A model generated the notes under the pieces. It made no database searches, had not been told where the DNA came from, and saw only the letters and a program-made list of their open reading frames with translations. A stretch of 64,000 nucleotides of DNA. Origin: an uncultured Myxococcales bacterium. Lineage in GTDB: Bacteria; Myxococcota_A; UBA9042; DTJE01. The position numbers and the translations under genes were made by a program. Positions 1,799 through 52,443 of the stretch are shown here, in pieces (within the stretch, counting starts at the first letter, position 1; each line of letters begins with the position of its first letter). The stretch spans positions 48,969 to 112,968 of the forward strand of contig CAINDP010000007.1 in the NCBI GenBank assembly GCA_903847405.1, given 5' to 3'.

Positions 1799-4613
1799 TC
1801 AGTCCCCGCCGAATTCCTCGTCCGGCGGTTCGTCGCCGGGCGAAGCATCCCCGCCGGCAGGCGGCTGTACGGCCGCGAAGCGGATGTGCTGCTCGAGTGC
1901 GGCGGCGACCTCGTCCCCGCCGATCCGTTTCCGCCGCTCCATCTCCTCGATCAGCCACTTGACCCGACGCTCGAAGGACGGAGGCACCGCCCCGTCCTCG
2001 ACGTGCTTGTGGAACAAGCGGGGATTCGGAATGATGGTCACCAGGTAGGCGGCCTCCAGCAGCGACAGTTCCGCCGGGCGCTTCGCGAAGTAGTGTCCGG
2101 CCGCCTCGCGCAGGCCCCAGACGTTGGGTCCCCACTCGATGACGTTCAGGTACAGTTCGAGGATCTTCTCCTTGGGCAGGGTCTGCTCCATCTGCCAGGT
2201 CAGGAACACCTCCTGCAACTTGCGCGACATGGTCTTTTCGCGCGACAGGAAGAGGTTCTTGACCAGTTGCTGGGACAGGGTGCTTGCGCCCTGGTAGAAC
2301 CCCCCGCGCTCGATGTTCACCTTGATGGACCTGCGGATGCCGACGGTCGAAAACCCCTTGTGCTGGAAGAAGTTGGCGTCCTCCGAGGTGGTCAGCGCCT
2401 CGACGAGGTATTTCGGCACCTCGGTCAGCGGCACCCATTCCGGGGTCGCCTCGCCGACCATCCGGTCCACGATCGTCCCGTCGCCTTCCTCGATGCGGTG
2501 CAGGAAGACCGTCTGCAGCAGGCCCATGTCCACCGCCTTGCCCAGGTTCAGCGTGGTCATGTCGGCCACGTCCGGGCGGATGTCCATGCGCACGGCGTCG
2601 AGGTTCCCGGTGTCCACGTCCAGGTCCACCGTCGCGGCAAAGGTGCCGGACAGACGCATGCCGTCCAGGGAGCCCAGGACCTCCCGGGGCAGGGCGTCCA
2701 CCAGTTCCTGCGCCGGCAGGCGCTCCACGGCGCCCTTGAAGGAAAAATGGGGCCGTTCCGCCAGGCCCTCCGCGTGCATCTCGAAGGGCATCCGGACCTT
2801 GTCCAGGGAAGCGACTCCCCCGCTCAGGTCCAGTCGCCCGGCGGCCCAGTCGAAGGCCAGCGTGCCTCCCAGCGAGGCCTGGGACAGCCGAAGGGGCGCG
2901 GAGGCCACGGCGGGCAGGTCCAGGACCAGCCCGGCGATCCGCAGCGTTCCCGAAGCGTCGATGCGATGGACCGTGGGATCGAAGTGCAGGGTCCCGTCCG
3001 TCTGGTTCAGCACCGCGTCGCGGGTCCGCAGCCAGCGCGGCATGATGGCGCGGAAGGCGTGCATGGGAAGGTACTGGGCCTTCACGGTCGCCTTGACGTC
3101 CCCGGTGGCCGGGTTCAGCGTCAGGCGGGCCTCGTTGGCGTTCGCGGGGGCCTCGGGGCACTCGAACCGCAACGAGGCCTCGATGGGCCCTCCGGCGGTC
3201 CGTTCCAGTCGTGCCTCCAGGTTCACCAGGGACTGTCCCGGGCGGGCCGCCGTCTGCCCGGGCTCCAGCGTCCGCACGGTCGCGCCGTGGACCTCCAGGC
3301 GGGCCTCGGGGAAGGCCTGGGCCGCCGCGATGATGGCGGCGGTGCCGGACGACAACCGTTCGGCAACGTCCTGGAAGGCGTGCACCATCCGGACCTGCGC
3401 GGTCGGCGCGCCTTGCGGCGGGACCGCGGCCTTCTGCTGCACGGGCTCGCGAGCCTTGACCGCGGGACGCCGGATCGGGGCGCGCGGGTCGTTCCCGGGG
3501 ATCCGATCGGGGCTTCCCGGACCGATCCGGGCCCCGGTGGGCGCCGGTCCGTCCGTCGTTTCGCGCGGCCGTCGCGGCACCGGGGGAAGGTCGGCCAGGA
3601 CCACGTCCACGGACGGTCGCAGGATCTCGACGGCGCGCACGGTCCGCCCCGTCAGGAACCGGCCGGCGAGGGGCGCCAGGGAGGCTGGCAGACGGTCCAG
3701 GATGGCCTTGGGCGCGGGGCCGCCACCGTCGTCCCAGCGCAGGGCGACAGCCTCGGCGCGGACGGTCCACTGGTCGGGCTGCGACCAGGTCGGTCCCAGG
3801 ACCGCGACCTCGCCGGGCGCCCAGGATACGCCGTCGGCCGACACGCTTCCGAAGGGGATCGTCAGCACGACCGCCGGCTGGACCCGGCCCGACACGCGTT
3901 CCAGCGCGCCGGAGCCCAGCAGGGCCTCGATCTCCAGGTGCCGGGCCGTCCCGTCCCCCTCGTCCAGCGACAGATCGGCCACCAGGCGGCGGCGTGCCTG
4001 GACGGATTCGTCCTTCACCGGGGCCAGATCCACGCGGCCCCGATCGACGCGGAAGGTGCGGGTGCCAACGTGGGCGGCCAGGATCACCTGGGCGACCGCC
4101 AGGTCGGGGAGCCTGGACGCCCGGAAACCGGGTTCGGCGTCCGCCTGGGCCGGGGCTGCGTCCCTCCGGTGCAGCAGGGACCGCAGGCGCGCGACCGCGG
4201 CCTCCGGCCCCTCCAGCGGGGCCTCCGGGTCGCCCAGGCGCGCCGCGATCCGCTCCACTGCGACCCGCTCTATCCGGCGCTGGCCCACGAGGAATCCGAA
4301 GGGGTCGACCTCGACCCGGATCCCGTTGATTTCCGCTTCCCAGTCGGAACCGTCGCGCCAGGAAACGCGCTGGATCGTCACGGCCGTGGAACCCTGCAGT
4401 GCGACGCCCTGCACCTCGACCGTTCCGGGCAACCGTCCCGCGAAGCGGGCGATTTCACGGCGCGCCAGGCTGTCCGCGATCCGCGGGAGGACGACGACGG
4501 TGGCTGCGACACCCAGGGCCACCAGCGCCACGACGGCGATGACGACCTGCAGCAGACGACGATAACGGGGAGGTCTGGTGGAGCCGGAGGTGCGGGAGGC
4601 GAGGGAGGTCACT
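1799..4613 (-). CDS. Membrane-anchored 938-aa protein with a C-terminal GT51 peptidoglycan transglycosylase domain
   Basis: The C-terminal ~230 aa carry GT51 motifs (EDANFFQHKGFS, GASTLSQQLVKNLFL, KILELYLNVIEWG). One N-terminal TM helix (LLQVVIAVVALVALGVAATVVVL) is followed by a ~650-aa beta-rich region of unknown family. The GTG start at 4613 overlaps the upstream lipoprotein stop (GTGA). The ORF-track extension to 4714 was rejected because it overlaps the lipoprotein gene. Confidence 0.7.
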
Positions 4614-5037
4614 TCGACTGGGAGCCGCCGCTGGTGGCCGACGCCCAGGCGATGAGGCCGATGAGCGTGCCGGCCAGCGCGACGCCGCCGGCGATCCACA
4701 GGGCGGTCTTCCACGTGGACATGTGGTCGACTTCCGCGTTGTCCTTCAGGCTGTTCACGTCGAGGATGTAGTCACGGTCCGACGCGACCAGCTGCGATTC
4801 GGTCATCTTGAAGTTGAACGGCGTGATCGGATAGCGCTTGCCGCCCTGGGAGCGGACGAAGAGGCGCGTGTCCTCCTTGACCACGATGTCCTTGCCTTCG
4901 GTATCCTTCACGGTCGCCTGGCCGGCCTCCGGGACCTCCTGGAGGTTCCCCAGTTGCGAGCGCGGAACGGTGTACGTGTTGTAGCAACCAAGGCCGAACG
5001 TCGACACGACAAGAACGGCAGCAACCAAGCGCTTCAT
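4609..5037 (-). CDS. Small lipoprotein (142 aa), translationally coupled to the GT51 protein
   Basis: MKRLVAAVLVVSTFGLGCYNT has a signal peptide and lipobox. There is a C-terminal TM/hydrophobic segment. RBS GGAGGGGGG lies upstream of the ATG at 5037. Confidence 0.65.
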   Translation of the reverse strand: MKRLVAAVLVVSTFGLGCYNTYTVPRSQLGNLQEVPEAGQATVKDTEGKDIVVKEDTRLFVRSQGGKRYPITPFNFKMTESQLVASDRDYILDVNSLKDNAEVDHMSTWKTALWIAGGVALAGTLIGLIAWASATSGGSQSK

Positions 5038-5113: not shown

Positions 5114-5740
5114 TCATGCGTCGCGATCGACGCGCTGTGCACCGGGCCCCGATGTCGAGGCCAACTCCATCGCCAACTGGCTGGGAAGGTCCGGCTCGAA
5201 GCACCGGCGGCACCGGGCTTCGTAGCTGTCCGCGGCGCCGACGACGATGCGATTCTCGCTGGCCATCAGGCGCTGCGTGCGGCTGGCCGCCGCGCCGCAC
5301 CGCATGCAGACGGCCAGCGTCTTCGTCACGTAGTCCGCGACGGCCATCAACTGGGGCACCGGCTCGAAGGGGATCCCGCGGTAGTCCAGGTCCAGGCCCG
5401 CGACGATCACCCGCTTGCCCAGGTTAGCCAACCGCTCGCACACGGCGATGATCCCGCGGTCGAAGAACTGCACCTCGTCGATCCCGACGACCTCGACCCG
5501 ATCGTCCAGCAACCGCATCACGTCCTCGGACGTCCGGGCGACGATGGCATCCAGGGACGCCTCGGAATGCGACACGATGCGGTCCACGGAATACCGGTCG
5601 TCGATGGTCGGCTTGAAGACCTGGACGCGCTGGCGGGCGATGCGGGCGCGCCGCAGCCGGCGGATCAGTTCCTCGCTCTTGCCCGAGAACATCGGGCCGC
5701 AGATGACTTCCAGACCGGCCGTGGGGTTGTAGAAGGACAT
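5114..5740 (-). CDS. tdk: Thymidine kinase
   Basis: MSFYNPTAGLEVICGPMFSGKSEELIRR (P-loop) and a C-terminal zinc ribbon CMRCG...CRRC. ATG at 5740. The ORF-track N-terminal extension to 6181 was rejected. Confidence 0.9.
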   Translation of the reverse strand: MSFYNPTAGLEVICGPMFSGKSEELIRRLRRARIARQRVQVFKPTIDDRYSVDRIVSHSEASLDAIVARTSEDVMRLLDDRVEVVGIDEVQFFDRGIIAVCERLANLGKRVIVAGLDLDYRGIPFEPVPQLMAVADYVTKTLAVCMRCGAAASRTQRLMASENRIVVGAADSYEARCRRCFEPDLPSQLAMELASTSGPGAQRVDRDA

Positions 5741-6786
5741 CAGCCCAGATACCTCGCTTCCAGGAAGGCCCGCAGCCGGGGTTCGCCGCGCACCAGGTCC
5801 AGCGCGACGTCGGCGTGGCCCGGCACGTAGCCGTTCCCGATCAGCAGCGACACGTCCTTGCCCACGCCCTCGGCGCCCAGGGCCGCGGTGGTGAACGAGG
5901 TCGCCATGTTGAAGAAGTACGACGTCCCCCCGTCCCGGGTGGCCAGGACGGTCGCCATTTCGGTGCCGGGGATGTTGGTCGTGTTCAGCACGACGTCCAG
6001 CATGGCGCCGCCGGTCGCGGCGTGCACGGCTTCCAGCACCGTCAGCGGGTTCCGCGCGTCGGACAGGATGCCTTCGTGGATGAAGCCCAGTTCCTTCAAC
6101 AGGTCCAGGGCGTCCGGCCGCACGTCGATCCCGTACACGCGCCCCTCGGGCCCTGCCGCCTTCCGGGCCGCGGCGGCGCACAGCAGCCCGGATTTCCCCG
6201 TGCCCAGGATTCCCACGCGCATGCCGGGGCGGACCAGTCGGAGGGTCTGGGCCGGCGCGCCGGCGACGTCCAGGACCGCCAGGGCCACGTCCCGCGGCAG
6301 GTCATCCGGCAGGCGCACGCCGATGCCCGAGGAAAACAGGATCGCGTAGCCCTCGGCCGCGACCTGGTCCCGGTCCAGGTACACCTTCGTGATGCGCGAC
6401 AGGTGCAGCGGGGTCAGGGACAGCGACACCAGCGTCGCGATGCGATCGCCCACGCGGGCGTCGATCGGCCCGGCATACTCGGCGCCGACCTCCAGCACCG
6501 TGCCCACCAGCATGCCGCCGGAGCCGGTGACCGGGTTGTGCTGCTTGCCCCGCTTGGCGATCGTTTCCAGGATCTGCGCGGCAATCCCGGCCGGGTCGCC
6601 GTCGGCCGCCTGCTTCATCTGGGTGAACGAGGCCGCGTCCACGTTCAGCATCTCGACGTTCACCAGCAGTTCGCTGGGGTGCAGGGGCAGGCTGTTGTCC
6701 AGCCGCCACGCCGCCTGGGGCAGGACACCCCGCGGTTCCAGGACCCGGTGCGTGCCGAAGCGCACGCCCGCCTCATGATTCGTCAT
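5740..6786 (-). CDS. NAD(P)-dependent dehydrogenase resembling L-erythro-3,5-diaminohexanoate dehydrogenase (Kdd family)
   Basis: 348 aa with an N-terminal GTHRVLEPRGVLPQAAW...SFTQ block that I recall from Kdd. Rossmann motif GILGTGKSGLLCAAAARKAAG. The stop overlaps the tdk start. Family name assigned from memory only. Confidence 0.5.
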   Translation of the reverse strand: MTNHEAGVRFGTHRVLEPRGVLPQAAWRLDNSLPLHPSELLVNVEMLNVDAASFTQMKQAADGDPAGIAAQILETIAKRGKQHNPVTGSGGMLVGTVLEVGAEYAGPIDARVGDRIATLVSLSLTPLHLSRITKVYLDRDQVAAEGYAILFSSGIGVRLPDDLPRDVALAVLDVAGAPAQTLRLVRPGMRVGILGTGKSGLLCAAAARKAAGPEGRVYGIDVRPDALDLLKELGFIHEGILSDARNPLTVLEAVHAATGGAMLDVVLNTTNIPGTEMATVLATRDGGTSYFFNMATSFTTAALGAEGVGKDVSLLIGNGYVPGHADVALDLVRGEPRLRAFLEARYLG

Positions 6787-6792
6787 CGTCGT

Positions 6793-7635
6793 TCATCCGT
6801 TTCGAAGTCGCGCCATCACCAGTTGCAGGTCTGCCCACGTCGGCCGCTTGTAGTCGACGTTCCGCAGCAGGGCGGCCGGATGATACGTCACCACCAGGGG
6901 GATGTCACCGCGACGTTGCACCCGTCCCCGCTGTCGCGCGACGCCGTCCGTGCTGCCCGTCAGGGCATGGGACGCCGCGGCCCCCAGGGCGACCAGGAAC
7001 TTCGGCCGCAACAGGCGGATCTGCGCTTCCAGGTAGGGCTGGCACAACCCGGCCTGATCCGGCGTCGGCGTGGCGTTCTCGGGCGGCCTGCACTTCACCA
7101 CGTTCGCGATGTAGCACTCCTCGCGCGTCAGGCCCATGGCCGCGATCATCTTGTCCAGCAACTGGCCCGCGGCGCCCACGAACGGACGCCCCGTGAGGTC
7201 CTCGTCGGCCCCTGGGCCTTCGCCCACGAACATCACGGTCGGCGCGTCGCGGCGGCCCTCCCCGAAGACCGCGTGGGTCCGGGTGGCGTGCAGGGGACAC
7301 CGCGTGCAGACCTTGACCAGGGCCTCGATGGCGTCCAGGTCCTCCGGGAGATCGGGCCCGGCGGACGGGAACGGCGCGCCGTACTGCGGAACGGACGACG
7401 GCCCGGGTCGTTGGGCCGGGGTCACCGGCCGCTCCGGGCGCTCGGTCAGGGGAGGACGGGCGAACTCCGGCGGCGCCGGCGGGGCGGTTCGCGGTGCGGC
7501 GGCGGTCGGCTGGACCGGGGGCGGGACCGGCCGCGGGGGGACGGGCAGGGCGGGCACGTCGCCGGCCTCGGATTCCAGGAAGCGCCGAAGGGCGTCGGCC
7601 GCATCGGCCAGGTGACGCGCGAGCGTGTCGTCCAC
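6793..7635 (-). CDS. Uracil-DNA glycosylase, family 4 (Fe-S type), with a Pro-rich ~100-aa N-terminal extension
   Basis: VKVCTRCPLHATRTHAVFGEG...VMFVGEGPGADED...GRPFVGAAGQLL...VVKCRPPEN are family-4 UDG motifs. GTG start at 7635. An internal start is possible. Confidence 0.75.
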   Translation of the reverse strand: MDDTLARHLADAADALRRFLESEAGDVPALPVPPRPVPPPVQPTAAAPRTAPPAPPEFARPPLTERPERPVTPAQRPGPSSVPQYGAPFPSAGPDLPEDLDAIEALVKVCTRCPLHATRTHAVFGEGRRDAPTVMFVGEGPGADEDLTGRPFVGAAGQLLDKMIAAMGLTREECYIANVVKCRPPENATPTPDQAGLCQPYLEAQIRLLRPKFLVALGAAASHALTGSTDGVARQRGRVQRRGDIPLVVTYHPAALLRNVDYKRPTWADLQLVMARLRNG

Positions 7636-7662
7636 GGGGAGCCCCCGGGGTCCCTCGACCCG

Positions 7663-8892
7663 TCAATGGGTGGTGCCGCCGGACGTCGGCAGCCGTTCGG
7701 CCAACCGGTCCAGCAGGAAGTCGGCCAGGTCGGCCTTGGTCCGGGACGCCACGGTTTCCGTGTCGCGGTCCCGGGAAACCAGGAAGCCTTCGTTCGGCCG
7801 GGCGCCGAACCCGACGCCGTCGCCCACCGGGTTGGCGAACAGCAGGTCCAGCCCCTTTTCGTCCAGCTTGCGGCGGCCCGAGGCCTCGACGTCGTCGGTT
7901 TCGGCGGCGAATCCCAGGACGATCCGACCGGCCAGGGCCGGCCGCAGCGTCAACAGGATGTCCGGTGTCGTCACCAGGTCCAGCGTTGCCGGAAGGTCCT
8001 TCTTGCGTCCCTTGCCGGGCCGGGGAGCGGCCGGTCGCTGGTCGGCCGGCGCGGCCGCCATCACGAGGGCATCGGCGCCCTGGAGCGCCGCCTGCGTCGC
8101 TTCCAGCATCTGCTGGGTCGTCATGACCCGGACCACGGAAATCGAGGCGTCGTCGAACGCCCGCGGCGGGGGCACTTCGGTCGGCCCCAGCACCAGTCGG
8201 ACCCGGGCGCCTCGAACCTGCGCGGCCCGCGCGATTTCGATGCCCATGCGTCCCGTGGACGGGTTGGTGATCAGCCGCACCGGGTCCATCGGTTCCCGGG
8301 TCGGCCCGGCCGTGACCACGATCGTCCGGCCCGCCAGATCCCGGGGGCCCAGGGTCGCCGCGGCCTGCTCCAGGATGTCCTGCGGTTCCGGGAAGCGACC
8401 GGGGCCCACGTCGCCGGACGCCAGGTCCCCGGCCTCGGGGGGCATGACGCGGAAGCGCGAGGGATCCAGCCGGGCCAGGTTCTGCTGGACGGCGTGGCTC
8501 TGCCACATCGCCGTGTGCATGGAAGGCACCAGCAGCACCGGGGCCCGGGACGCCAGCACCACCGCCGACAGAAGGTTGTCCGCGAACCCGCCGGCCAGCC
8601 GCGCCAGCGTCGTGGCCGTGCACGGGGCGATGACGATCAGGTCGCAGGCTCGCGCCATTTCGACGTGCGACACGCCGCCGCCCGTGTGGAAGAAGTCCGC
8701 GTCGGTGCCGACGGGGTTTTCCGTCAGGGCCTCGAAGGTCAGGGGTCCCACGAACTTCGTGGCCGCCTGGGTCATCACGACCCGCACGTCGGCGCCCGCC
8801 TTTCGCAGACCCCGGGCCACGAACCCGACCTTGTAGGCCGCGATTCCGCCCGAGATGCCCAGCAGGATGCGACGGTCCTTCAGCGCTCGCAT
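7663..8892 (-). CDS. coaBC: Bifunctional phosphopantothenoylcysteine decarboxylase / phosphopantothenate-cysteine ligase
   Basis: 409 aa. N-terminal flavoprotein domain (ILLGISGGIAAYK...) and C-terminal CoaB ligase domain (ITNPSTGRMG). Confidence 0.9.
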   Translation of the reverse strand: MRALKDRRILLGISGGIAAYKVGFVARGLRKAGADVRVVMTQAATKFVGPLTFEALTENPVGTDADFFHTGGGVSHVEMARACDLIVIAPCTATTLARLAGGFADNLLSAVVLASRAPVLLVPSMHTAMWQSHAVQQNLARLDPSRFRVMPPEAGDLASGDVGPGRFPEPQDILEQAAATLGPRDLAGRTIVVTAGPTREPMDPVRLITNPSTGRMGIEIARAAQVRGARVRLVLGPTEVPPPRAFDDASISVVRVMTTQQMLEATQAALQGADALVMAAAPADQRPAAPRPGKGRKKDLPATLDLVTTPDILLTLRPALAGRIVLGFAAETDDVEASGRRKLDEKGLDLLFANPVGDGVGFGARPNEGFLVSRDRDTETVASRTKADLADFLLDRLAERLPTSGGTTH

Positions 8893-8899
8893 GGGGTGC

Positions 8900-9946
8900 C
8901 TACTTCTGGAGGATGTGGAATTCGACGCGCCGGTTCACGGCCCGCCCGGCCTCGGTGGAGTTGTCGTCGAGGGGGACTTCGTCACCCATGCCCGCCGCCT
9001 GCAGCCGATCGGGGCCGACCCCCTGGCCGACCAGGTACATCCGCACCGCGTCGGCCCGGGCCTGCGACAGCTTCTGGTTCACCTTCGGCTTTCCGACGGT
9101 GTCGGTGTGTCCCTCGATGCGGATCTTGAACTTCGGGTGATCCAGGATCGCCTGCGCGACCTCGTTCAGCAGTTCGAAGGACTCCTTCTTGATGGCGGCC
9201 TTGCCGGTCTGGAAGAAGACCTTCTGCTTCACCTGGATCTGGTCCTCGGTGATCGCGATCAGGGCGTACGGGCAACCGCTGTTCTCGACGGGTCCGGCCT
9301 CGGTCGGGCAGCGGTCCACGTCGTCGGAAACGCCGTCCTTGTCGCCGTCCTGGATCGGGCAGCCGCGGTTGATGCGGGGGCCGGGAACCGTCGGGCACGA
9401 GTCGTCGGGATCCATCACGCCGTCGGCGTCGGAGTCCTTGACCGGGCATCCGCGGTTGGCGGGTGTCCCCGGCGCGATCGGGCACTGGTCGTCGCCGTCC
9501 TTGACGCCGTCGCCGTCGTTGTCCGGATCCGGGCATCCGTCCTCGTCCTGGAACGAATCGAAGTCCTCGGCCAGGGTGGGGCACTTGTCGTCGCGATCGG
9601 GGATCCCGTCGCCGTCCGCGTCGGGCATGCAGATCGTGTCGCCCGAGCCCTTCCAGCCCTCGCGGACCGCGGCCTCGGCCTCCTCGATGGCGGCCTTGGC
9701 CGGGAACGGTCGTCCGCGGGAGGACTCGTGGCGGGCCCGGGCGATGGCCACCTCGGCCCGGGCCAGGGCCTTCGGAGCGCATGCGTAGAACTGGTCGTGG
9801 TGGTCGGCCATCAGGGCTTCCAGGGCCTTCGTCCGCTGCGCGATCTGGCTGTGACCGACGCAGGCGAGGGCCGACGGCAGCAGGACGACGGCGGCGGCGA
9901 ACACCGCGATGCGGGCGGGGCTCGGGAGGCGGATGGCCTGTTTCAT
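8900..9946 (-). CDS. OmpA-family lipoprotein with thrombospondin type-3 (Ca-binding) repeats
   Basis: Signal peptide and lipobox (MKQAIRLPSPARIAVFAAAVVLLPSALAC). Repeated DADGDGIPDRDDKCP / DNDGDGVKDGDDQCP / DSDADGVMDPDDSCP TSP3 units. C-terminal OmpA domain (NQKLSQARADAV...NRRVEF). ATG at 9946 with RBS GGGAGGAA. The ORF-track extension to 10348 was rejected. Confidence 0.85.
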   Translation of the reverse strand: MKQAIRLPSPARIAVFAAAVVLLPSALACVGHSQIAQRTKALEALMADHHDQFYACAPKALARAEVAIARARHESSRGRPFPAKAAIEEAEAAVREGWKGSGDTICMPDADGDGIPDRDDKCPTLAEDFDSFQDEDGCPDPDNDGDGVKDGDDQCPIAPGTPANRGCPVKDSDADGVMDPDDSCPTVPGPRINRGCPIQDGDKDGVSDDVDRCPTEAGPVENSGCPYALIAITEDQIQVKQKVFFQTGKAAIKKESFELLNEVAQAILDHPKFKIRIEGHTDTVGKPKVNQKLSQARADAVRMYLVGQGVGPDRLQAAGMGDEVPLDDNSTEAGRAVNRRVEFHILQK

Positions 9947-10323
9947 CGCGTTCCTCCCGACCGGCCGTCGGCCGGGGGCACGGCCTTCCCGGAGGGGTCC
10001 CCGGGCGCAGCCTTCCCGCGGGACTCGCGTAGCCGGGCATTCCGGGGTGCCAGGTCCCGCGTGGACGACGCCAGTTGGGCCGCCTTGTCGGCGAACTCCC
10101 GTGCCACATCGAATTCTGCCCGTCCGGCCAGGTCCCGTGCCGCCGTCAGGTATCCGTCGGCCGCGGTGATTTCGTAGGGGCACTCCTTGTCCCATCCACG
10201 GGTGCGGGCCTCGCGCAGGGAATCGTCCGCCCGCGTGATGGCCGAGGAGGCCTGGATCGGGCCGCAGCCGGCGCAGAAGAACGCTGCCAGCCCCAGTCCC
10301 AGGACCACCATCCGCATCGCCAT
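9943..10323 (-). CDS. Small lipoprotein (126 aa), DUF4398-like, coupled to the OmpA gene
   Basis: MAMRMVVLGLGLAAFFCAGC has a signal peptide and lipobox. Helical Ala/Arg-rich body. The stop overlaps the OmpA start (ATGA). Small lipoproteins of this kind commonly precede OmpA-family genes. Confidence 0.55.
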   Translation of the reverse strand: MAMRMVVLGLGLAAFFCAGCGPIQASSAITRADDSLREARTRGWDKECPYEITAADGYLTAARDLAGRAEFDVAREFADKAAQLASSTRDLAPRNARLRESRGKAAPGDPSGKAVPPADGRSGGTR

Positions 10324-10399
10324 CCCCCGTCCCGTGCCCGTAGTTCAATACCAGCCGACCTCCGCGGTGTCAACGCGCCCCCCTTCCTCCCTCCCCACC

Positions 10400-10540: not shown

Positions 10541-13500
10541 TCAGAGCCCCGTACCCGCCGAATACTCGCCGTACTCGAACGAGGCGTGCATCGAGCGGAT
10601 CAGCTCCAGCTTGCCGACCAGGAACTGCAGCGGGTGGAACAGGTAGTTCGTGCGGAGGTCGTCGAAGGTCAGGTCCGCCACGTCCTTCGGGCTGGACGCG
10701 ATGTTCTTGCACTCGTCGATCTCGTTCTGCGTGAAGGTCTTGTTCCGGGCGGGGTCATAGCAACTGAACATGAAGTCGCACTGCTTGACCAGGTCGAACG
10801 CCGGGTAGTACTGGCCGTCCGTCGTGCGGTAGGTCGTGTAGATGCGGCCCGAGAAGATGTCCTCGCAGGTCGCGACCTCGGCGCCCGCCGGCGGGGTGAC
10901 CGCGTACTTTTCACCCTGCAGCCACAGCCGTGTCGTGTCCATGAAGGACTGGTCGTAGTTGTTCACCATCAGGGCCATTCCGTAGTACGCCGCCAGCATC
11001 GGGATGCGGAAGCGGGTCGTCGGGAACGTGTACAGGGGCTCGGGCTCCAGCGAGATGCCGGGCATCGCGGCCTTGAACTGGCCCGTCGGGCAGGCCGCCG
11101 CGTCGTCGTAGCGGAGCAGGCGCGTGGGCACGCTCATCAGGGCGCCGTTGGTCTGCTTGTTGAAGCAGCCCATGTACATGTCGGCGCAGGTCTGGCCCGT
11201 GTACCCGGCCCCGACGCGGTCGGGCTGGGCGAAGGTGACCGGCTGCGTGGTCTCCGGGTGGGTCAGCACGCACCAACCGTACTTGTCGGAGTTGTTCGCC
11301 ATCAGGCCGCCGAACAGGTCGCGCATCTCGTTGCGGAACACGGACGCGTAGTTGATCAGGTACTTCCGGGTGTCCGCCTGGTAGTCCGTCGCCAGGAACC
11401 AGGTCTCGGGATCGGACAGGTACTCGAAGGCCGCGATGCGCTCGTAGATCGAGCCCGAGGAGACGACGGTCGGCTGGTAGCCGCTGTAGTCCCAGTTCGA
11501 GTAGATCGGGCGCGCGCCGGCCTCTTCCATGATCATGATCTGGCCGGTGTAGTTGTTCCGGTTCACCTGGTCCAGCGGCTCGAACCGCTTGGTCTGCCAG
11601 TTGTAGCCGTGGCTGCCCGGCTCGGGACGGCCGAAGGCGCCGGCCATGGTGTTGAACGAGGCGTAGGCCGCCAGGGCGCCCGGCAGACCGCCGTTCAGGT
11701 CCTCTTCCCAGCGCTTGCCGAACTTGCTCTTCCAGAAGTCGCCGTGGTTGTACGTCTGGTAGTTCAGCACCCACCACTGGAAGTGATGGCGCATGTTGTA
11801 GAAGGCGAAGCGCATGCTGCCGTCGTACATCGTGGGCCAGTACGTCGGGTCGTTGTGCCAGTAGCCGCTGAAGATCCACATGTTCTCGTACATTTCGCGC
11901 AGGTTGTTCACGATCTCGAAACTGTCCACGCCTTCGTCGAAGGTCGCGACGGTCGGCAGCCTGTAGGACAGTTCGTCGCCGCCGAACCGGAACGGGACGA
12001 CCGTGTCCGCGATCGAGCAGCGCAGGCCCTCGTGGAGCATCTTGCAGACGCGGTTGCCGGAGCAGTTGGCGCCCTCGCTGGTGCACTTTTCGCCGATGAC
12101 GGCCGCCTTGGGGACGTCGTGGCGCGCATAGATGTTGGCGGTGTCGCCGAACAGGTTCGGGATGTTGGTGGCGTGGATGCGACGCAGGGCGATGCCCAGG
12201 CCTTCGCCGCGCTGGTTGCGCAGGTCGGTCGCCTCGTTGCCCGGGGCGATCTGCAGCGGATCGACCGCGACGTATTCCGCCACGGAGCGCAGGTCCGGCG
12301 GCGTGTTGAACACTTCCATCAGGTTGCCGTAGGCGTACTTGATGGCGGCCGTGTCGTACAGGCCGATGCCCATCCAGGGCATGTTGAACTTGGCGTAGTA
12401 GTCCATGACCGAGGAGTACTGGTACTCGCGCAGGCCGCCGGCGATCTGGGCGGGGGTTTCGCCCCACAGACCCTCGGGCTGGTAGGTGTCGCCGTCCTTG
12501 CGGACCTTCAGATCCCAGTAGCCCGGCTTGAAGTTCAGGGCGTCGCTGGACGCCTCGAAGTTGTGGCGCAGGCCCAGCGTGTGGCCCACTTCGTGGATCG
12601 CGACGCCGTAATAGATCTTCTGGTACAGGTCTTCCTGGACCGTCACCCGCAGCTCGGCCAGCACCGTGTTGAACGCCTTCTGCGTCGCCATCAGGCCCGG
12701 GTTGGTCGTTTCCATCTCCAGCGGGGTGGGGATGTAGGTCGACTCGAAGCCGTAGGGGTTCATGGCGTTGTAGTACGCGAACCGGACGCGCAGCTGCTCG
12801 ATCAGGGCCTCGGTGCTGCAGGGAGCGTCCGCCGTGAAGCCGGTGAAGTCCAGTTCCGCCTGGCCGTTCATGCGCTCGCAGACCGTGACGTCATACTGCG
12901 CCTTGTACTGGTCGGCCAGGTGCAGGACGGCCCCGTCGAAGAAGGTGGCCAGGTCGTAGCCGCGCTTCGACATGCCCATGTAGTACTGGATCATCTTCTT
13001 GCTGCCGCCGACGTTCGCCCAGTTCTTCAGCAGGTACTTTTCGCTGCGGGCGTCGTTCGCCTTGGGGGCCTTGTCGCCCAGGCGCGGGTCCTTGAACAGC
13101 ATGCGCACGTCGTCGCTGACGAACAGGGCCTCGAGGTCGGGGTTGTTGCCCAGGATGGCCATGCGCGCCGCCGAGAAGTTCTGATCGGTCTTCTGGGGCA
13201 GGGTGGCGGTCAGGGCGTCGGCGACCGCGGGGATCACCAGCTTCTGGGCCAGGGCAACGGCCTGGTCATTGGTGAAGCCGGCCTTCCAGTAGGTGGACTG
13301 CTGCAGGCGCTTGGTGCGCATGTCGTCGGAAATGTACTTGCTGTTGGCGATCTCGCGGAAGGACTTGATGCCGGTCAGCAGTTCGATGCGGTCCATCGCG
13401 CGCTGGGCGCCCTGGCGCATCGCGGCGACGTAGTTGTTCGCCGTGGCCGTCACGATGCGGCCGGACAGCGGGTCTGCCGAGGACGGGCCATAGCCGTACA

Positions 13501-14893
13501 GGCCCACCTGGGTCGGGGCGTTGACCGCACTGAGGAAGTTGTAGCGCAGGTCGCCGAGGTGCTTGGCAACCGACAGGTCGCCGCAGATCGCCGGGTTGGT
13601 TTCGGCGGTCAGCGTCCCGTGCGCCGCCAGGTCCGTGGTGTTGTTTTCGCACACCAGGTACATGTGCTCGACCGAAACGGGCTTGCCCTGTTCGTCCAGC
13701 ATGGGCTTGCCGTTGCGGTCATACGCGGGCAGTTCGCCGGGGTTCTTGCCGGTCACCGACAGGACGGTCGCGTCGAAGGCCGTGGACCACTGGATGGCCA
13801 GGTCGATCCCGGACTGGACCAGGTTCGCCGGGTAGCCTTCCGTCAGGGTGTACACGATCGGCTTGACGCCGATGATGACGCCCGCGGCATCGCGCTGGTA
13901 GATGTCGTGGCGGTTCACGTAGCGCTGGACGCCGCCGTAGGTCGTGCCGTAATCCACGTCCCAGCGCAGGCGCTCGCTGCGGAAGTACCCGAAGCGCTCC
14001 ATGTCGAAGTCGGTGAAGTCCTGAGCGTCGTACTTCAGGAAGGCTTCCTCGCGGGCGGGATCGACAGCCAGGAAGGACGTGCGGGTGCGGATGCGCTCGC
14101 TGATGCACTCGTAGATGCCGCCGGAGTACCACGCGTAGTAGTAGCAGAGCGGCACGGTGCCGTAGCCGTCCATGTACTCGGTCTGCGCCTCGAAGATCCA
14201 GTCGTTCACGAAGTCCATGTAGCCGGTCTCGGGATTGATCCGGGACTCCAGTTCGGGCGCCGACTGGGCGTCGTGCAGGATGTTCGGCGCGCCCGTCTGG
14301 CTGAATTCCTGGAACGCGTTGACCGACGAGGGCAGCAGGTCGTTGCCCCAGCCGACGCGCATGGATTCGCGCTGGTACCACAGGCGGTCCGAGGTGTTCT
14401 CCGAAAGGACGTTGGTCTTCTCGCCCGTGTTCGGGTTGTACTCCCAGATCACGTCCAGGTGGCTTTCGATCGGGTACGCCGCCACGGGCGAGTTCTTGTC
14501 CATCCAGACTTCGTTGCCGTTGACGAGGTACGGGGTCCCGTCACGGTTCGTCAGCCGCTGGTCGACGTCGTGGCGCGGGGTTTCCATCCCTTCGCCGATG
14601 ACGAAGCTGTAGACGCGGTAGAAGTACAGCACCTTTTCCTGGATGTCGAAGACGCCGCGCTCCATGACGCCCTGCATTCCCACGAACGAGTACGCCGAGG
14701 CGTAGGGCGCCTCGGTGGTCGTGGACTGCATGAACCATTCCTTGCGCGTGCCGTCCGCGTTGAACAGCAGGTCCGCCTTCTGGCTGACGTTCTGCTGCGT
14801 GCGATCGACGGTACCAATGTCCTGGGCACACCCCGCGGCCAGCGCAGTCAGCGCGAGCAGCGCAGGCAGCATGATCTTCAACGCACGATGCAT
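10541..14893 (-). CDS. Giant lipoprotein zinc metalloprotease, metzincin-like (1450 aa)
   Basis: ATG at 14893 with RBS GGAGGGA. Signal peptide and lipobox MHRALKIMLPALLALTALAAGC. Zinc site AIHEVGHTLGLRHNF (HExxHxxGxxH) with a Met-turn-like YSSVMDYY ~40 aa downstream. Paralogous to the next gene. Confidence 0.85.
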   Translation of the reverse strand: MHRALKIMLPALLALTALAAGCAQDIGTVDRTQQNVSQKADLLFNADGTRKEWFMQSTTTEAPYASAYSFVGMQGVMERGVFDIQEKVLYFYRVYSFVIGEGMETPRHDVDQRLTNRDGTPYLVNGNEVWMDKNSPVAAYPIESHLDVIWEYNPNTGEKTNVLSENTSDRLWYQRESMRVGWGNDLLPSSVNAFQEFSQTGAPNILHDAQSAPELESRINPETGYMDFVNDWIFEAQTEYMDGYGTVPLCYYYAWYSGGIYECISERIRTRTSFLAVDPAREEAFLKYDAQDFTDFDMERFGYFRSERLRWDVDYGTTYGGVQRYVNRHDIYQRDAAGVIIGVKPIVYTLTEGYPANLVQSGIDLAIQWSTAFDATVLSVTGKNPGELPAYDRNGKPMLDEQGKPVSVEHMYLVCENNTTDLAAHGTLTAETNPAICGDLSVAKHLGDLRYNFLSAVNAPTQVGLYGYGPSSADPLSGRIVTATANNYVAAMRQGAQRAMDRIELLTGIKSFREIANSKYISDDMRTKRLQQSTYWKAGFTNDQAVALAQKLVIPAVADALTATLPQKTDQNFSAARMAILGNNPDLEALFVSDDVRMLFKDPRLGDKAPKANDARSEKYLLKNWANVGGSKKMIQYYMGMSKRGYDLATFFDGAVLHLADQYKAQYDVTVCERMNGQAELDFTGFTADAPCSTEALIEQLRVRFAYYNAMNPYGFESTYIPTPLEMETTNPGLMATQKAFNTVLAELRVTVQEDLYQKIYYGVAIHEVGHTLGLRHNFEASSDALNFKPGYWDLKVRKDGDTYQPEGLWGETPAQIAGGLREYQYSSVMDYYAKFNMPWMGIGLYDTAAIKYAYGNLMEVFNTPPDLRSVAEYVAVDPLQIAPGNEATDLRNQRGEGLGIALRRIHATNIPNLFGDTANIYARHDVPKAAVIGEKCTSEGANCSGNRVCKMLHEGLRCSIADTVVPFRFGGDELSYRLPTVATFDEGVDSFEIVNNLREMYENMWIFSGYWHNDPTYWPTMYDGSMRFAFYNMRHHFQWWVLNYQTYNHGDFWKSKFGKRWEEDLNGGLPGALAAYASFNTMAGAFGRPEPGSHGYNWQTKRFEPLDQVNRNNYTGQIMIMEEAGARPIYSNWDYSGYQPTVVSSGSIYERIAAFEYLSDPETWFLATDYQADTRKYLINYASVFRNEMRDLFGGLMANNSDKYGWCVLTHPETTQPVTFAQPDRVGAGYTGQTCADMYMGCFNKQTNGALMSVPTRLLRYDDAAACPTGQFKAAMPGISLEPEPLYTFPTTRFRIPMLAAYYGMALMVNNYDQSFMDTTRLWLQGEKYAVTPPAGAEVATCEDIFSGRIYTTYRTTDGQYYPAFDLVKQCDFMFSCYDPARNKTFTQNEIDECKNIASSPKDVADLTFDDLRTNYLFHPLQFLVGKLELIRSMHASFEYGEYSAGTGL

Positions 14894-14963
14894 CGGAGTC
14901 CCTCCGTTCGCGAGGCCGAGGATCTGGTTCTCACGGTTCCTGTTCATCGCCATCACCTCCGCC

Positions 14964-17900
14964 TCAGATCTTCATCTTGCTGAAGACCTCGTAGACGCCC
15001 CGCATCATGTCGAGGACTTCGACGATGTTGCGGAGTTCCACCTCGGCGGCGGCCTTGTCGGCGCCGGTCGCGGCCTCCCACAGAGCCTTCTGGGCATTGG
15101 CCTTTTCGACCAGCACCACGTTCGGCGAGTACCAGTCCGCGGTGTAGGTCGGTGCCCACACGACGAAGGTCTTGCCGGTGAAGGGATCGCTGAATTCCTG
15201 CGGCACGATCCCGCTGGTGGCCCCGATGTCGTGGCAGTTCCCGTTGCCCTTCAGGCAGACCGTGAACGAATCCAGGAACGACGGGTCGAAGGACGCCGGC
15301 AGGTACGCCATGCCGTAGACCATCATGTACAGCTTCAGGGTGATGTTCTGGATCGACGGCTCGACGCGGGGAGCCGTGCTGGCCGCCACCTCGGTGAGGT
15401 ACGGAGCCGGCACGACCGTTCCGACGATCTCGCCCAGGGTGTCGGTCGCATAGATGCTGCTGTTGCGCGGGTCGAACAGCTTGCGGGGGGCGTAGGTGCC
15501 GCCCTTTTCCGCCGTGCCCGCGAAGATCTGCGGGCTGTCGCTGATGGCGCCGCCGAACAGCTCGGTCAACTGCTTCGGGTACATCGTGTTGAACCCGATC
15601 GAGGTCCCGACGCCGATGTTCAACTGCTCGCCGACGTAGTTGGTCGTGAAGTAGACCGTCGAGTCGGTCAGGGTCATGAGGGCCGCCATCTTCTCCCAGA
15701 ACGAACCGTAGAACTGGGCGTGGTCCCAGAAGAAGTAGCCGGCGCCGTTCCAGAAGGTGGTGTAGGGGTACTTCCCGTCGGACAGCGGGATGTCCAGTTC
15801 GCTGCCCGTCGCGCCGCTGAGGTAGGAGATGTTTTCGAACAGGTTCTTGTCCACGTTCATCTTGTACGAGCCGGGCGCCGGCGAGGCCAGCGTCGAGGCC
15901 AGGATCTCGAAGCCCGTTTCCGACGCGCGCCGCAGGCCGTAGCCCATCAGCTTGGCGTTCGCCCAGACGCCGCGCCAGGAGTAGTTCTTGAGGACGTGGG
16001 AGTACAGCGCGTACAGCATGCCGCAGCCGCGCATGACGTCCATGTAGCGGGTCTGGACGCGGGTCATGTACCCGACCGGGTTGCCGTGGAGGCCGGCGCC
16101 GTAGCGCTCGCGCTTGAAGGCGTCCATCAGGTAGTAGTCGTGCAGCTGGATGCCCATGTTGTGGACGATTTCCAGCGCGTCCACGCCCGTGTCCCACGTG
16201 TAGATGCCGACGTTGCCGGCATACTCGTCACCGCTGAACTTGTAGGGGACCTGGATGTAGGTCCAGTCCAGGTAGGACTGGTAGTAGTTGGTCGTCATGT
16301 TGTGCTCGTCCCGCAGGGACTCGTAGGGCACCGCGGTACGATTGCGGACGCTGTCGCCTTCCGAGCGGTTGGCCTTCTCGCCGATCAGGTTGTTGAAGAA
16401 GTAGAACTGCGAGAAGAAGATGCCGCCGCCCCAGTAGGTCGTGTCCAGGTTGTCCGAGCTCTGGGACTCGCTGTCCTGGCCGTAGCTCTGGTAGTACGTG
16501 TGCACGGCGTTCTGCAGCTTTTCCGTGTCGTTGTACACGTCCACCAGGCCGCCGTAGCCGAACCGGATGGCGGCCTTGTCGTACTTGCCCAGGTCCAGGA
16601 TGTCGCTGTTCCAGCGCTGGCCGTAGTCCATGATGGACGAGACCTGGTAGATGGTCCGGGACTGCTGCGCTTCGCTGTCCGTCAGTTCGGCGCGCGGGAT
16701 GAACGCCATGATCTTGCCGTCGTTCTCGTTCACGACGGGGGTCGTCACGCGGGTCTTGACGCCGTCCTGGCTGCTGTAGCACACGCGGTCGTCGCCGTTG
16801 CAGGTCGAGCCCGCGGGGCAGACGCCGTGGAGGTTGCATCGGGTGATCTCGACGCACTGGCCGGCGATGCAGTCGAAGGTGTCGTACTTCGGGACCGCGG
16901 CGTTGGCGAAGCCGCAGTCCGAGGCCTTCGTGCAGGTTTCGACCTTCTTGGCGCGGCAGAAGTGGCCCTCGCAGTACTGGCCCAGGGCGGCCTCGCACTC
17001 GTCGTTGACCTCGCAGGGTACCGGCTCCTTCACGCGGATGTCGTAGTACTTGTCCGGGTAGTTGAACAGGTCCGTGGACGCCGCGAAGTTGTGCCGCAGG
17101 CCCATCGTGTGGCCGACTTCGTGCTCGACGACGGCCGTGTAGAAGCGCTTCAGGATGCTGCGGGCCAGCATCGGGCCGCTGCTGATGCAGCAGGGGCTGC
17201 CGGTGTCGTTGGCGGGGTCCAGGGCGTCCCACGTCTTTTCGTCGCAGCGCGGGCGGGGGTCGTCGCCGATGCAGGCCCAGGACTGGACCATGCCCAGCAT
17301 GCCTTCGTCGTCGAACTCGCCGTAGCAGTAGGCGTGCTTGCCCAGGTAGATCTGGCGCTCGCGCTCGCGCTTCTGGATGTCCTGGATGTTCGCCCACTCC
17401 AGCGGCGAACCGCTGACGGGGGAGTCGTTGTCCAGGGCGTACTGGACTTCCGAGTTGGTCATCAACTGCTCGTACTGGGTGCCCTTGAGGGCCGCCAGGC
17501 GCTGCTTGCCCAGGGACGGGCTGAGGACCGGAACGGTCGAGGCCAGGGGCGTCCCGATGTTCTTGTCCCGGATGATCTTGAAGATGTCCATCTGGCTGAT
17601 GGGCTTCTGGTTCTGCAGGACCTGCTGCGTCGGATCGAACTGCTGGCGCATGCCGGCAATCGGGTCCAGCGTCTGGGCCGGGGTGCCCTGCGGGGGAGCC
17701 TGCGGGGCCATCATCGCCTGGACTTCGGTCGGGGCGTTCTTGGCCTTGTCCTTGAGGTACGTGCGGATGTTTTCGCCCGTGACGTAGTCCGCCGTGTCCA
17801 GCTTGCCGCTGATCAGGTCGAACAGGTCGCGGTACATGTTGCCGTAGGTCGTCAGCGGGGCGCCATAGATGTTCGCGATGCCCCAGAACACCTGGCCGCT

Positions 17901-20423: not shown

Positions 20424-20734
20424 TGCAACCTCCCACACCCTTGGACTGCAAGGCGGAAGCGGCCTGCTCCCTGCCTGAAAACCGACGTTATATACCTGCA
20501 AACACTCGGCAAGGGAAGCGGCAATTCGCGTCGCGGTGTCCGGTCTCTTCAATCGCAAGAATCGGGCCAATACCGGGGCCCCCGGGCGCCTTCCGGTGCA
20601 CCGAAAGCGGGGAGCGGGGGGCTTCCGGCCGGATTCGGTTGCGGCGTCACGATCCGGACGGCGTGCGGCCGCGGCTTTCCAAGACCGCGCCGGCGTGCTA
20701 TCAGATCAAGGTGTAAGCGCGGAGTTGCCCCACG

Positions 20735-45019: not shown

Positions 45020-45111
45020 GGACGCGTACCGGGGCGTTCCGGCGTTGGCGCGATGTCCCAGGGGGCTGGGCGCGGCGCCGGGGTTCAGATCCCTTCATGT
45101 CGAAGGAAACC

Positions 45112-47760: not shown

Positions 47761-47811
47761 GCGTGTCGCGTGTGTTCGACGCCGATCGTGGCTGGACAGG
47801 GAAAGCCCCCG

Positions 47812-50433: not shown

Positions 50434-50538
50434 CGCGTTCCGTTCCGCCCGCATGATTCCCCGCATCTCACGTTGACGCCGCACCCCGCAAGCGTTTCAA
50501 TGCCCCGGTACGAATTGGATGTGTTGCCGGGAGGCCCC

Positions 50539-52443
50539 ATGAAGTTCCTGAAGACGGTTCTGTGGATCGCGATCGCCCTGGTGGGGGCCTTTTCGTACGC
50601 GGTGATCACCCGGCTGGTGAACCCGGACGAGCCGATCAACGCCCTGTGGCTGGTCGTCGCCGCCGCCTGTACCTACGTGCTGGCGTACCGGTTCTACGGC
50701 GCCTTCCTGGCCTCGAAGGTCTTTGCGCTGGACGATCGCAGCCCGACCCCGGGCGTGCGGTTCGCCGACGGCCGCGACTTTCACCCGACGAACAAGTGGG
50801 TGCTGTTCGGGCACCACTTCGCCGCCATCGCGGGCGCGGGTCCGCTGATCGGCCCGGTGCTGGCCGCCCAGTTCGGCTACCTGCCGGGCGCCCTGTGGCT
50901 GCTGCTGGGGGCGGTGTTCGCCGGCGCGGTCCACGACTTCGTCATCCTGGTCGCGTCGATCCGCCATGACGGGTGCTCGCTGGCGGAAATCGCCCGCCGG
51001 GAGGTCGGCCCGGTCGCGGGCGTGGCCGCGTCGCTGGCGACCCTGTTCATCGTGGTGGTCGCGCTGGCGGGCCTGGGACTGGCCGTCGTGAACGCGCTGG
51101 CGCACAGCCCCTGGGGTACCTTCACGATCGCCAGCACCATCCCGATCGCGCTGTTCATGGGCCTGTACATGTACAAGATCCGGCCCGGCAAGGTGGTCGA
51201 AACGACCGTGATCGGCGTCACGCTGTTGATCCTGGCCGTGGTGTTCGGGCACGACGTCGCGAATTCCGAGGCGGCCGGGTGGTTCACGCTGCAGCGGAAC
51301 ACGCTGGTCTTCGCGATGGCGGCCTACGGGTTCATCGCGTCGGTGCTGCCGGTGTGGATGCTGCTGTGCCCGCGGGATTACCTCAGCACGTACATGAAAC
51401 TGGGGACGATCTTCCTGCTGGCCGCCGGCATCCTGTTCCTGGCGCCCGACCTGAAGATGCCTGCGACGACGCAGTTCATGGACGGCTCGGGGCCGGTGAT
51501 CCCCGGCTCGGTGTTCCCGTTCATGTTCATCACGATCGCGTGCGGCGCGGTGTCCGGTTTCCACGCGCTGGTCGCGTCGGGCACGACGCCGAAGATGATC
51601 AAGCGGGAGTCCGACGCGCTGGCGATCGGATACGGGGCGATGCTGGTCGAGGGCTTCGTGTCGATGATGGCGCTGATCGCCGCCAGTTGCCTGATCCCCG
51701 GCGACTACTTCGCGATCAACTCGATGCTCAGCGTGGACGCGCTGACGCAGTTGGGCTTTGCGCCCGAGCGGATCCACGAACTGTCGCAGATGGTCGGGAC
51801 CGACGTGATGAACCGGCCGGGCGGCGCGGTGTCGCTGGCGGTGGGCATGGCGTCGATTTTTTCGTCCCTGCCCGGGATGAAGGGCCTGATGGCCTACTGG
51901 TACAACTTCGCGCTGATGTTCGAGGCGCTGTTCATCCTGACCACGGTGGACACGGGGACCCGCGTGGCGCGCTTCCTGGTGCAGGAGATGGGCGGGTACT
52001 TCTACAAGCCCCTGGGGCGGCACGCGTGGATTCCGGGGACGCTGCTTTCCAGCACGCTGGTCGTGGGGGCCTGGAGCTACATGATCTACACGGGCAGCAT
52101 CGCGACGATCTGGCCGATGTTCGGGGTGGCGAACCAGTTGCTGGCGGCCATCGCGCTGTCGGTGGGGACCTCGGTCATGTTCCGGATGGGGAAGGCGAAG
52201 TACACGCCGATCACGATCGTCCCGATGGCCTTCATGGTCGTCACGACGCTGACGGCTTCGGTGGAACTGGTCCAGCGGTATTGGGCCGAGGCCGCAGCGA
52301 AACCGGAGTTGGCGTTCACGTTGCGGCTGGACGCGGTGCTGGTGGGGATCGTCGCGTGCCTGGTCGTGGTCATCCTGGTCGATTCGATCCGCCGGTGGCG
52401 GGGGTACATGGCGGCCGGGCCCAAGAGGCCGGTCGTGGCGTAA
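50539..52443 (+). CDS. cstA: Carbon starvation protein A (CstA family peptide/pyruvate transporter)
   Basis: ATG at 50539 with RBS GGGAGG. 634 aa, ~16 TM. CstA blocks (WVLFGHHFAAIAGAGPLIGPVLAAQFGYLPG, GNVLWALDSLTTG-like FMFITIACGAVSGFHALVASGTTPKM). Confidence 0.9.
   Translation: MKFLKTVLWIAIALVGAFSYAVITRLVNPDEPINALWLVVAAACTYVLAYRFYGAFLASKVFALDDRSPTPGVRFADGRDFHPTNKWVLFGHHFAAIAGAGPLIGPVLAAQFGYLPGALWLLLGAVFAGAVHDFVILVASIRHDGCSLAEIARREVGPVAGVAASLATLFIVVVALAGLGLAVVNALAHSPWGTFTIASTIPIALFMGLYMYKIRPGKVVETTVIGVTLLILAVVFGHDVANSEAAGWFTLQRNTLVFAMAAYGFIASVLPVWMLLCPRDYLSTYMKLGTIFLLAAGILFLAPDLKMPATTQFMDGSGPVIPGSVFPFMFITIACGAVSGFHALVASGTTPKMIKRESDALAIGYGAMLVEGFVSMMALIAASCLIPGDYFAINSMLSVDALTQLGFAPERIHELSQMVGTDVMNRPGGAVSLAVGMASIFSSLPGMKGLMAYWYNFALMFEALFILTTVDTGTRVARFLVQEMGGYFYKPLGRHAWIPGTLLSSTLVVGAWSYMIYTGSIATIWPMFGVANQLLAAIALSVGTSVMFRMGKAKYTPITIVPMAFMVVTTLTASVELVQRYWAEAAAKPELAFTLRLDAVLVGIVACLVVVILVDSIRRWRGYMAAGPKRPVVA

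Follow-up and report, generated by a model that had tools for sequence, protein, structure and literature searches.

The locus and its two genes

The locus analysed here lies in contig CAINDP010000007.1 of an uncultured Myxococcales bacterium (assembly GCA_903847405.1), within a 64-kb stretch of DNA with a G+C content of ~72%, which is called the window below and to which all coordinates refer. It comprises two overlapping genes on the minus strand. The larger gene encodes a protein in which a transmembrane (TM) helix and a long AsmA-like region, called the arm below, precede a GT51 peptidoglycan (PG) glycosyltransferase domain at the C-terminus; the smaller gene encodes a lipoprotein, called the partner below. 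The nearest genomes to the window are uncultured freshwater "Myxococcales" metagenome-assembled genomes (MAGs). The features of the locus are listed below, with amino acid (aa) positions counted along the fusion protein and with the confidence (pLDDT) of an AlphaFold2 (AF2) model where a feature was defined from it.

4609..5037, minus strand: gene of the 142-aa partner lipoprotein, an open reading frame (ORF) with a GGAGG-like ribosome-binding site
4609..4612, minus strand: start/stop overlap GTGA of the lipoprotein and fusion genes, read from the sequence as ...TCG AAG TGA CCT...
1799..4612, minus strand: AsmA-like/GT51 fusion gene, whole, from the ORF and a codon check, with GTG start and TGA stop
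4484..4555, minus strand: TM anchor, aa ~20-43, after an Arg-rich cytoplasmic tail (aa 1-19); the sole hydrophobic 19-mer stretch, kept in all relatives
3593..4432, minus strand: beta block A, aa ~61-340, the N-terminal AsmA-like/DUF748 part; AF2 strands at 64-338, pLDDT mostly 82-98
3404..3583, minus strand: disordered Pro/Ala-rich linker, aa ~344-403; pLDDT <50 at aa 355-388, with gapped, poorly conserved alignment columns
2453..3403, minus strand: helix aa 404-433 and beta block B, aa ~438-720, which abuts GT51; AF2 pLDDT 92-98
1892..2476, minus strand: GT51 domain, aa ~713-907, with the E744 codon at 2381-2383 and the E801 codon at 2210-2212
1802..1891, minus strand: C-terminal tail, acidic, Pro-rich and disordered, aa 908-937; low pLDDT at aa 920-937

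The fusion gene runs from a GTG codon (4612-4610) to a TGA codon (1801-1799) and its product has 937 residues. The TGA of the lipoprotein gene (4611-4609) shares bases with that GTG, and through this GTGA overlap the partner appears to be translationally coupled to the fusion protein. The original prediction, which was made from the sequence of the window alone, had counted 938 residues for the product, one figure that required correction; its ORF coordinates, the GTGA overlap and the motifs EDANFF and GASTLSQQL had all been read correctly.

Analysis of codon usage revealed that the third-position G+C content (GC3) of the fusion ORF was 0.82-0.93 in each 100-codon block. The same 937-aa product is present in a public collection (P0001), where it came from an independent gene caller, and five more full-length relatives (44-79% identity) aligned with it end to end from the same N-terminus. 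Homologues as close as 79% and as distant as 26% identity retain the N-terminal 715 aa, including the start position and the TM helix, and the 26%-identical relative, which comes from a low-GC MAG, shows the same layout as the window protein. A longer ORF of 971 aa from 4714 was considered as well and was rejected: it would overlap the lipoprotein gene by ~100 nt and was without homologue support.

Architecture and family of the fusion protein

The product of the larger gene is a genuine bitopic envelope protein with a short cytoplasmic N-terminus, one TM anchor, ~660 periplasmic residues and a C-terminal GT51 domain. MtgA and class A penicillin-binding proteins (PBPs) carry GT51 at the N-terminus, directly after the TM helix, and the original prediction had proposed a reversed order of TM helix, long beta-rich region and GT51. 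This order is supported. A Kyte-Doolittle scan detected one TM segment only, at about aa 17-49, which falls within a long modelled helix (aa 16-60).

The Pfam family PF00912 (Transgly) matched aa 713-891 with an E-value of 1.6e-52 (178 bits against a cutoff of 27) over profile positions 3-177 of 178, and a phmmer search against PDB sequences recovered the glycosyltransferase domain of Aquifex aeolicus PBP1a (2OQO) at 6.4e-32. Five GT51 motifs were identified: motif 1, EDANFFQHKG, with catalytic E744, D745 and H751; motif 2, GASTLSQQ (G775-Q782); motif 3, RKLQE (R797-K798-E801), with catalytic E801; motif 4, KEKILELYLN (K814...Y821-N823); and motif 5, RRVKWL (R883). With both catalytic Glu residues present, the catalytic motifs are intact, as had been claimed from the sequence, and all five were invariant or at least 90% conserved among 134 family members. 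In addition, the domain shows the lysozyme-like, all-helical GT51 fold. No match to the transpeptidase family PF00905 was found in the fusion protein, in which 46 residues (aa 892-937) follow the Pfam GT51 match. The score on the NCBIfam equivalog model of MtgA (TIGR02070) was 163.3 bits, below its cutoff of 182.65, and that on the class A PBP model (TIGR02074) was 176.7 bits, below its cutoff of 508.75, with the glycosyltransferase part alone being matched. Moreover, GT51 starts ~670 residues after the TM helix of the 937-aa protein, in contrast to the MtgA layout of ~240 aa with a TM helix and then GT51. Judged from its sequence, the C-terminal domain is a complete GT51 enzyme domain that belongs neither to an MtgA orthologue nor to a class A PBP.

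The structure of the fusion protein was predicted with AF2 on an 84-sequence alignment; an earlier run on six sequences had given GT51 a pLDDT of only 63.6. The model places ~33 beta strands of high pLDDT between aa 64 and 719, so the region that had originally been described as unknown and beta-rich is predicted with high confidence to be so. The ~660-residue arm was modelled as two confidently folded beta blocks split by a disordered loop. Repeating-beta-groove (RBG) repeats typically have a looped-out disordered segment and a helix between beta blocks, as seen in the fusion protein. The linker differs in length and composition across the family, being Pro/Ala-rich in the window protein, extremely Lys/Arg-rich in P0031, and Ala/Glu-rich and longer than 100 residues in P0054. 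Within beta block B, G656 is invariant and P642, G691 and G720 are nearly invariant, and within the C-terminal tail, P917, P929 and E933 are invariant in an alignment of six close relatives.

Profile comparisons identified the central region as a divergent AsmA-like (RBG) domain, an assignment reached via transitive homology. An N-terminal profile was constructed from the first 715 residues of six close relatives, with no GT51 residues included. When 50 diverse matches to this profile were annotated, DUF748 was detected in 35 at E<=0.01 (best 9e-21), AsmA in 11, YhdP in 2 and a YdbH-like family in 1, and Transgly was matched in all 50. Seven relatives (P0085, P0116, P0159, P0031, P0047, P0054 and P0033) passed the DUF748 cutoff with 55-63 bits, in alignments that run from the N-terminus to aa 572-658, and the same seven matched the N-terminal profile of the window protein with E-values of 1e-25 to 1e-36. 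For the N-terminal majority consensus of 84 members, the scores were 97.9 bits with DUF748, 38 bits with YhdP and, above the cutoff of 29.8, 31.3 bits with AsmA. The DUF748, AsmA and YhdP matches of the relatives fall in beta block A, and a weak DUF748 match of the window protein itself covers aa 13-164. Profile-profile comparison has linked DUF748 to AsmA, TamB and DUF3971 (Heinz et al., 2015; PMC4494059). The original prediction had listed AsmA-like, SPOR and LysM among the domains to be searched for and had proposed that the central domain was a scaffold or a carbohydrate-binding region. The AsmA-like option was borne out at the family level. Carbohydrate-binding, SPOR and LysM families had no match in the window protein or in the 50 members, and PG-binding families had none in the 50 members; the proposal of a scaffold or a carbohydrate-binding region is not supported. 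A search of the N-terminal-region profile against PDB sequences returned nothing at E<=10.

An exhaustive search of the N-terminal profile over 1.84 billion cluster representatives yielded 412 clusters at E<=1e-3 and 103 at E<=1e-10. The best 150 of the 412 matches were listed, and 148 of their sequences were examined. A GT51 motif, as at least one of two patterns, was present in 144 of these 148, ~200 residues before the C-terminus. For most of the best 150 matches the strongest profile stretch spanned positions ~390-714 or ~536-714, which indicates that, outside the catalytic domain, conservation is highest in the block that adjoins GT51. A word-indexed search with the full protein had given a misleadingly rare picture, with 6 full-length relatives only, far fewer than the exhaustive profile search, and a word-indexed search with a diverse 15-sequence N-terminal profile found the same 6 proteins and nothing more. 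The fusion appears to represent a family of at least 400 sequence clusters sharing one architecture rather than a one-off. The conservation that the original prediction had wished to see checked extends in this way to hundreds of clusters, with the same start and TM helix in the relatives.

Members of the family bear the source names "hypothetical protein", "transglycosylase domain-containing protein" and "biosynthetic peptidoglycan transglycosylase" only, and precomputed database annotation already gives "DUF748, Transgly" for some of them. The named sources are Myxococcota, Myxococcales and "Deltaproteobacteria" MAGs, together with Bradymonadaceae and Lujinxingiaceae, a taxonomic range drawn from few named sequences. 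One cultured species is found among the named members, Lujinxingia litoralis of the Bradymonadales (WP_111730153.1, 1128 aa). Two MAGs labelled 'Oligoflexales bacterium' and 'Pseudomonadota bacterium' also carry family members (loci L012, DUVQ01000158.1, and L014, JBDRIT010000025.1), and these labels are unverified. L012 displays the full Myxococcota-type synteny (KDD_N, thymidine kinase, lipoprotein, fusion gene, DnaJ and Peptidase_S58), and its taxonomic label may be imprecise. Full-text literature searches found no paper describing or discussing the AsmA-like/GT51 architecture.

The partner lipoprotein and the gene neighbourhood

The partner consists of a signal peptide, a lipobox (...FGLG-C18-Y, with the Cys18 codon at 4984-4986), a periplasmic domain of ~90 aa and a C-terminal TM helix at aa ~111-134 (4636-4707), which was located by a hydropathy scan. 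Among 28 aligned homologues, C18-Y19 is invariant and the C-terminal hydrophobic segment is kept, and the core of the domain is very conserved (FVRSxGGKRYPITPFNFxMTxSQLVASDRDYIL). Since the protein combines a lipobox with a C-terminal TM helix, we infer that it remains an inner-membrane protein whose small domain faces the periplasm. Homologues of the partner were found in 115 clusters, and comparison with Pfam and NCBIfam gave no family at E<=0.1.

The coupling of the GT51 gene to a small lipoprotein, which had been proposed from the overlap, was also observed beyond the window. A tblastn analysis of 19 fetched loci, a small and partly phylogenetically redundant sample, placed the partner directly upstream of the fusion gene in 16 of them, with the two genes of the relatives overlapping by 1-17 nt or separated by 12-30 nt. 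The pair occurred in at least three otherwise unrelated neighbourhoods, namely TK...DnaJ (the clade of the window), PlsB/DUF507 (L015) and Lcl_C/CT398 (L019), and this recurrence suggests a functional link rather than mere shared synteny. Between L012 and the window, the lipoprotein is 65% identical, GT51 68% and the arm 26%.

Two further observations concern homologues of the partner. A subgroup of lipoproteins of 164-174 aa (e.g., L015:6001-6498) contains a ~25-residue charged-rich insertion after a conserved LQS motif, and it pairs with the 964-1007 aa DUF748/GT51 proteins of the PlsB/DUF507 neighbourhood. At L017:6001-6411, a lipoprotein homologue (P0257, 47% identity) is followed by an alpha-amylase gene, and a weak match to YkuD (L,D-transpeptidase) is found 3 kb downstream of it (L017:9470-10822).

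In the window, the lipoprotein/GT51 pair closes a tight same-strand run (5114-10348, minus strand) that encodes an OmpA-like protein with TSP_3 repeats, CoaBC, a family-4 uracil-DNA glycosylase (UDG), a KDD_N dehydrogenase and thymidine kinase. This run is kept in the clade of the window, and its genes have housekeeping roles and no obvious functional connection with the pair. On the other side, a plus-strand ORF (~340-1791) runs towards the GT51 gene and meets it at the 3' end. This ORF gave no match in Pfam or NCBIfam, and since it contains a lipobox-like 'VAVAFLGCGEK', translation probably begins at an internal codon. The relatives have an unannotated gene of 320-392 aa at this place.

Several other genes of the window were recorded. 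Two tandem giant ORFs on the minus strand (10541-14956 and 14964-20570) encode 1471 and 1868 aa, with a ~30-residue stretch of the Met-zincin family DUF4953 as the sole Pfam match, and a 1454-1545 aa homologue heads the same syntenic block in the relatives. Tandem 887-aa paralogues on the plus strand (45097-47760 and 47770-50433) have the architecture of cyanophycin synthetase (Cyanophycin_syn N-domain, ATP-grasp, Mur ligase M and C) and are followed by a gene of the CstA carbon-starvation transporter (50473-52443). A 507-aa protein (60614-62137, plus strand) carries PG_binding_1 at aa 154-213 and no other recognised domain.

Candidate roles of the fusion protein

Each of the two building blocks of the fusion protein is known; their combination in one protein, the placement of GT51 at the C-terminus and the new partner family are uncharacterised. 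We know of no characterised AsmA-like protein with an enzymatic domain, and the searchable literature contained none either. Relative to MtgA (S. aureus, PDB 3VMQ/3HZS) and class A PBPs (A. aeolicus PBP1a, PDB 2OQO), the fusion protein differs by ~660 AsmA-like residues between the anchor and the C-terminal GT51. It resembles AsmA-like proteins (DUF748 PF05359, AsmA PF05170, YhdP PF13116, YdbH and TamB) in its single N-terminal TM anchor followed by a long periplasmic beta-sheet domain, and its arm is shorter than those of the bridge-forming YhdP, TamB and YdbH.

Two known systems offer a more general likeness. First, LpoA and LpoB are outer-membrane lipoprotein activators of class A PBPs, with an element spanning part of the periplasm. 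The likeness is conceptual, a PG synthase being tied to a lipoprotein and a periplasm-spanning element, with no sequence or fold relationship; the fusion protein carries the spanning element itself, and its lipoprotein seems to have its anchor in the inner membrane. Second, E. coli YdbH depends on the operon-encoded lipoprotein YnbE, and this pairing is evolutionarily conserved (PMC11126948). The YdbH-YnbE(-YdbL) system shares with our locus an AsmA-like gene beside a small lipoprotein gene in conserved pairing, a likeness in general arrangement only. YnbE has 61 aa, whereas the partner described here has 142 aa, is encoded upstream, ends in a C-terminal TM helix and is unrelated to it. Furthermore, YnbE is in the outer membrane and extends the groove, whereas the helix of the partner implies residence in the inner membrane, and no YdbL-like gene is present beside the fusion/lipoprotein pair.

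On balance, our analyses lean, modestly, towards a monofunctional lipid II polymerase mounted on a lipid-groove arm. First, GT51 would polymerise lipid II as a glycan-strand synthase. Second, a hydrophobic beta-groove arm, whose N-terminal end is fixed in the inner membrane, would occupy the place of the usual TM helix adjacent to GT51; it would position the catalytic domain and probably handle lipid, and in this way may link the polymerisation of glycan to how the periplasm and outer envelope are built. Third, the small lipoprotein, held in the inner membrane by its C-terminal helix, would serve as membrane-side partner or regulator. The strong conservation of the block adjacent to GT51 suggests that the catalytic domain and the part of the arm farthest from the anchor function together as a single unit.

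Several points weigh against this polymerase-on-an-arm reading. GT51 enzymes act on membrane-embedded lipid II, with the jaw subdomain in the bilayer, yet the GT51 domain here sits 660 residues from its anchor, which leaves its route to the substrate unexplained. Neither the window protein alone (13.5 bits, E 0.018) nor the consensus of the 19 members of its clade (23.1 bits, E 2.4e-5) reaches the DUF748 (PF05359) cutoff of 50, for which reason the AsmA-like assignment depends on transitive homology. Structural comparison of the beta region gave non-specific matches, with TonB-dependent receptors and porins scoring equal or higher, and the matches to bridge-like lipid-transfer proteins (BLTPs) and TamB dropped from the top 60 once the better model was used. 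In addition, the pairing has exceptions: the distant fusion genes of L013 and L014 have upstream genes that are not homologous to the lipoprotein, and the lipoprotein homologue of L017 is found without a GT51 gene within 6 kb.

A bolder possibility, which we consider doubtful, is that synthesis takes place away from the membrane. The groove would end at the GT51 jaw and draw the undecaprenyl tails of both lipid II and the growing chain off the inner membrane, polymerisation would occur at the height of the sacculus, ~100 Å or more above the membrane, with undecaprenyl-PP sliding back down the groove, and the tail-anchored lipoprotein would gate entry at the membrane end. The reach of the arm, scaled from YdbH (869 aa, about 180 Å), would be roughly 120-130 Å for ~600 ordered residues. 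This proposal is purely inferential; neither an energy source nor a mechanism of lipid II extraction is evident, and no known GT51 enzyme acts away from the membrane. Moreover, the disordered segment of 60 aa could act as a hinge and bring GT51 back to the membrane.

A role of the beta region as a passive spacer or scaffold, binding no lipid and only tethering or spacing an otherwise ordinary MtgA-like enzyme or binding glycan or other envelope proteins, is also unlikely. The weak DUF748 score of the window protein and the structural matches, which are to generic curved beta sheets, would agree with such a role, and to our knowledge transport has not been demonstrated for the short AsmA paralogues of E. 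coli. Against this, none of the 50 annotated members has a carbohydrate-binding, SPOR, LysM or PG-binding family, the family consensus strongly matches DUF748, YhdP and AsmA, and ~180 residues beside GT51 are recognisable over hundreds of clusters, which would be unexpected for a mere spacer.

Quite improbable, in our assessment, is a phospholipid-transport bridge of the AsmA/YhdP type in which GT51 is not mainly a polymerase and instead docks the bridge in or through PG by binding glycan. TamB and YdbH do meet outer partners at their C-terminus, where the fusion protein carries GT51. However, both catalytic Glu residues and the five motifs are invariant or nearly so in the 134 members, which would be unexpected for a binding module, and the TM helix of the partner indicates the inner rather than the outer membrane. 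Furthermore, the ~660-aa arm is shorter than YdbH, which is itself too short to span the periplasm (PMC11126948).

Finally, an artefact, whether a real start far downstream that would leave an ordinary ~250-aa MtgA (the outcome that the original prediction had named as its own refutation) or a fusion created by frameshift or assembly error, might be suspected in a genome of 72% G+C, where long spurious ORFs are common on all strands, and it is refuted: the GC3 along the full ORF, the N-terminal conservation, the identical public product and the confident N-terminal fold (pLDDT 88) exclude the downstream start, the same architecture occurs on independent contigs from many samples and in the cultured isolate L. 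litoralis, the MtgA equivalog score is below cutoff, and neither a TM helix nor a start codon context lies directly before GT51.

In the current view, GT51 polymerases work at the membrane surface beside their own TM helix, and AsmA-like proteins are discussed solely as passive phospholipid bridges. If synthesis away from the membrane proved true, the fusion protein would be the first enzyme-bearing BLTP and the first off-membrane GT51 synthase; if the arm were only a spacer, it would be a taxon-specific MtgA variant and no more. The question is directly testable because a cultured member exists, L. litoralis. A conserved, widespread fusion with strictly conserved catalytic residues and a dedicated partner suggests that beta-groove proteins may handle polyprenyl-linked cell-wall precursors, or that a built-in arm may link glycan-strand synthesis in some diderm bacteria to periplasmic and outer-envelope geometry. 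Both options would broaden the known roles of bridge-like lipid-transfer proteins and of monofunctional glycosyltransferases.

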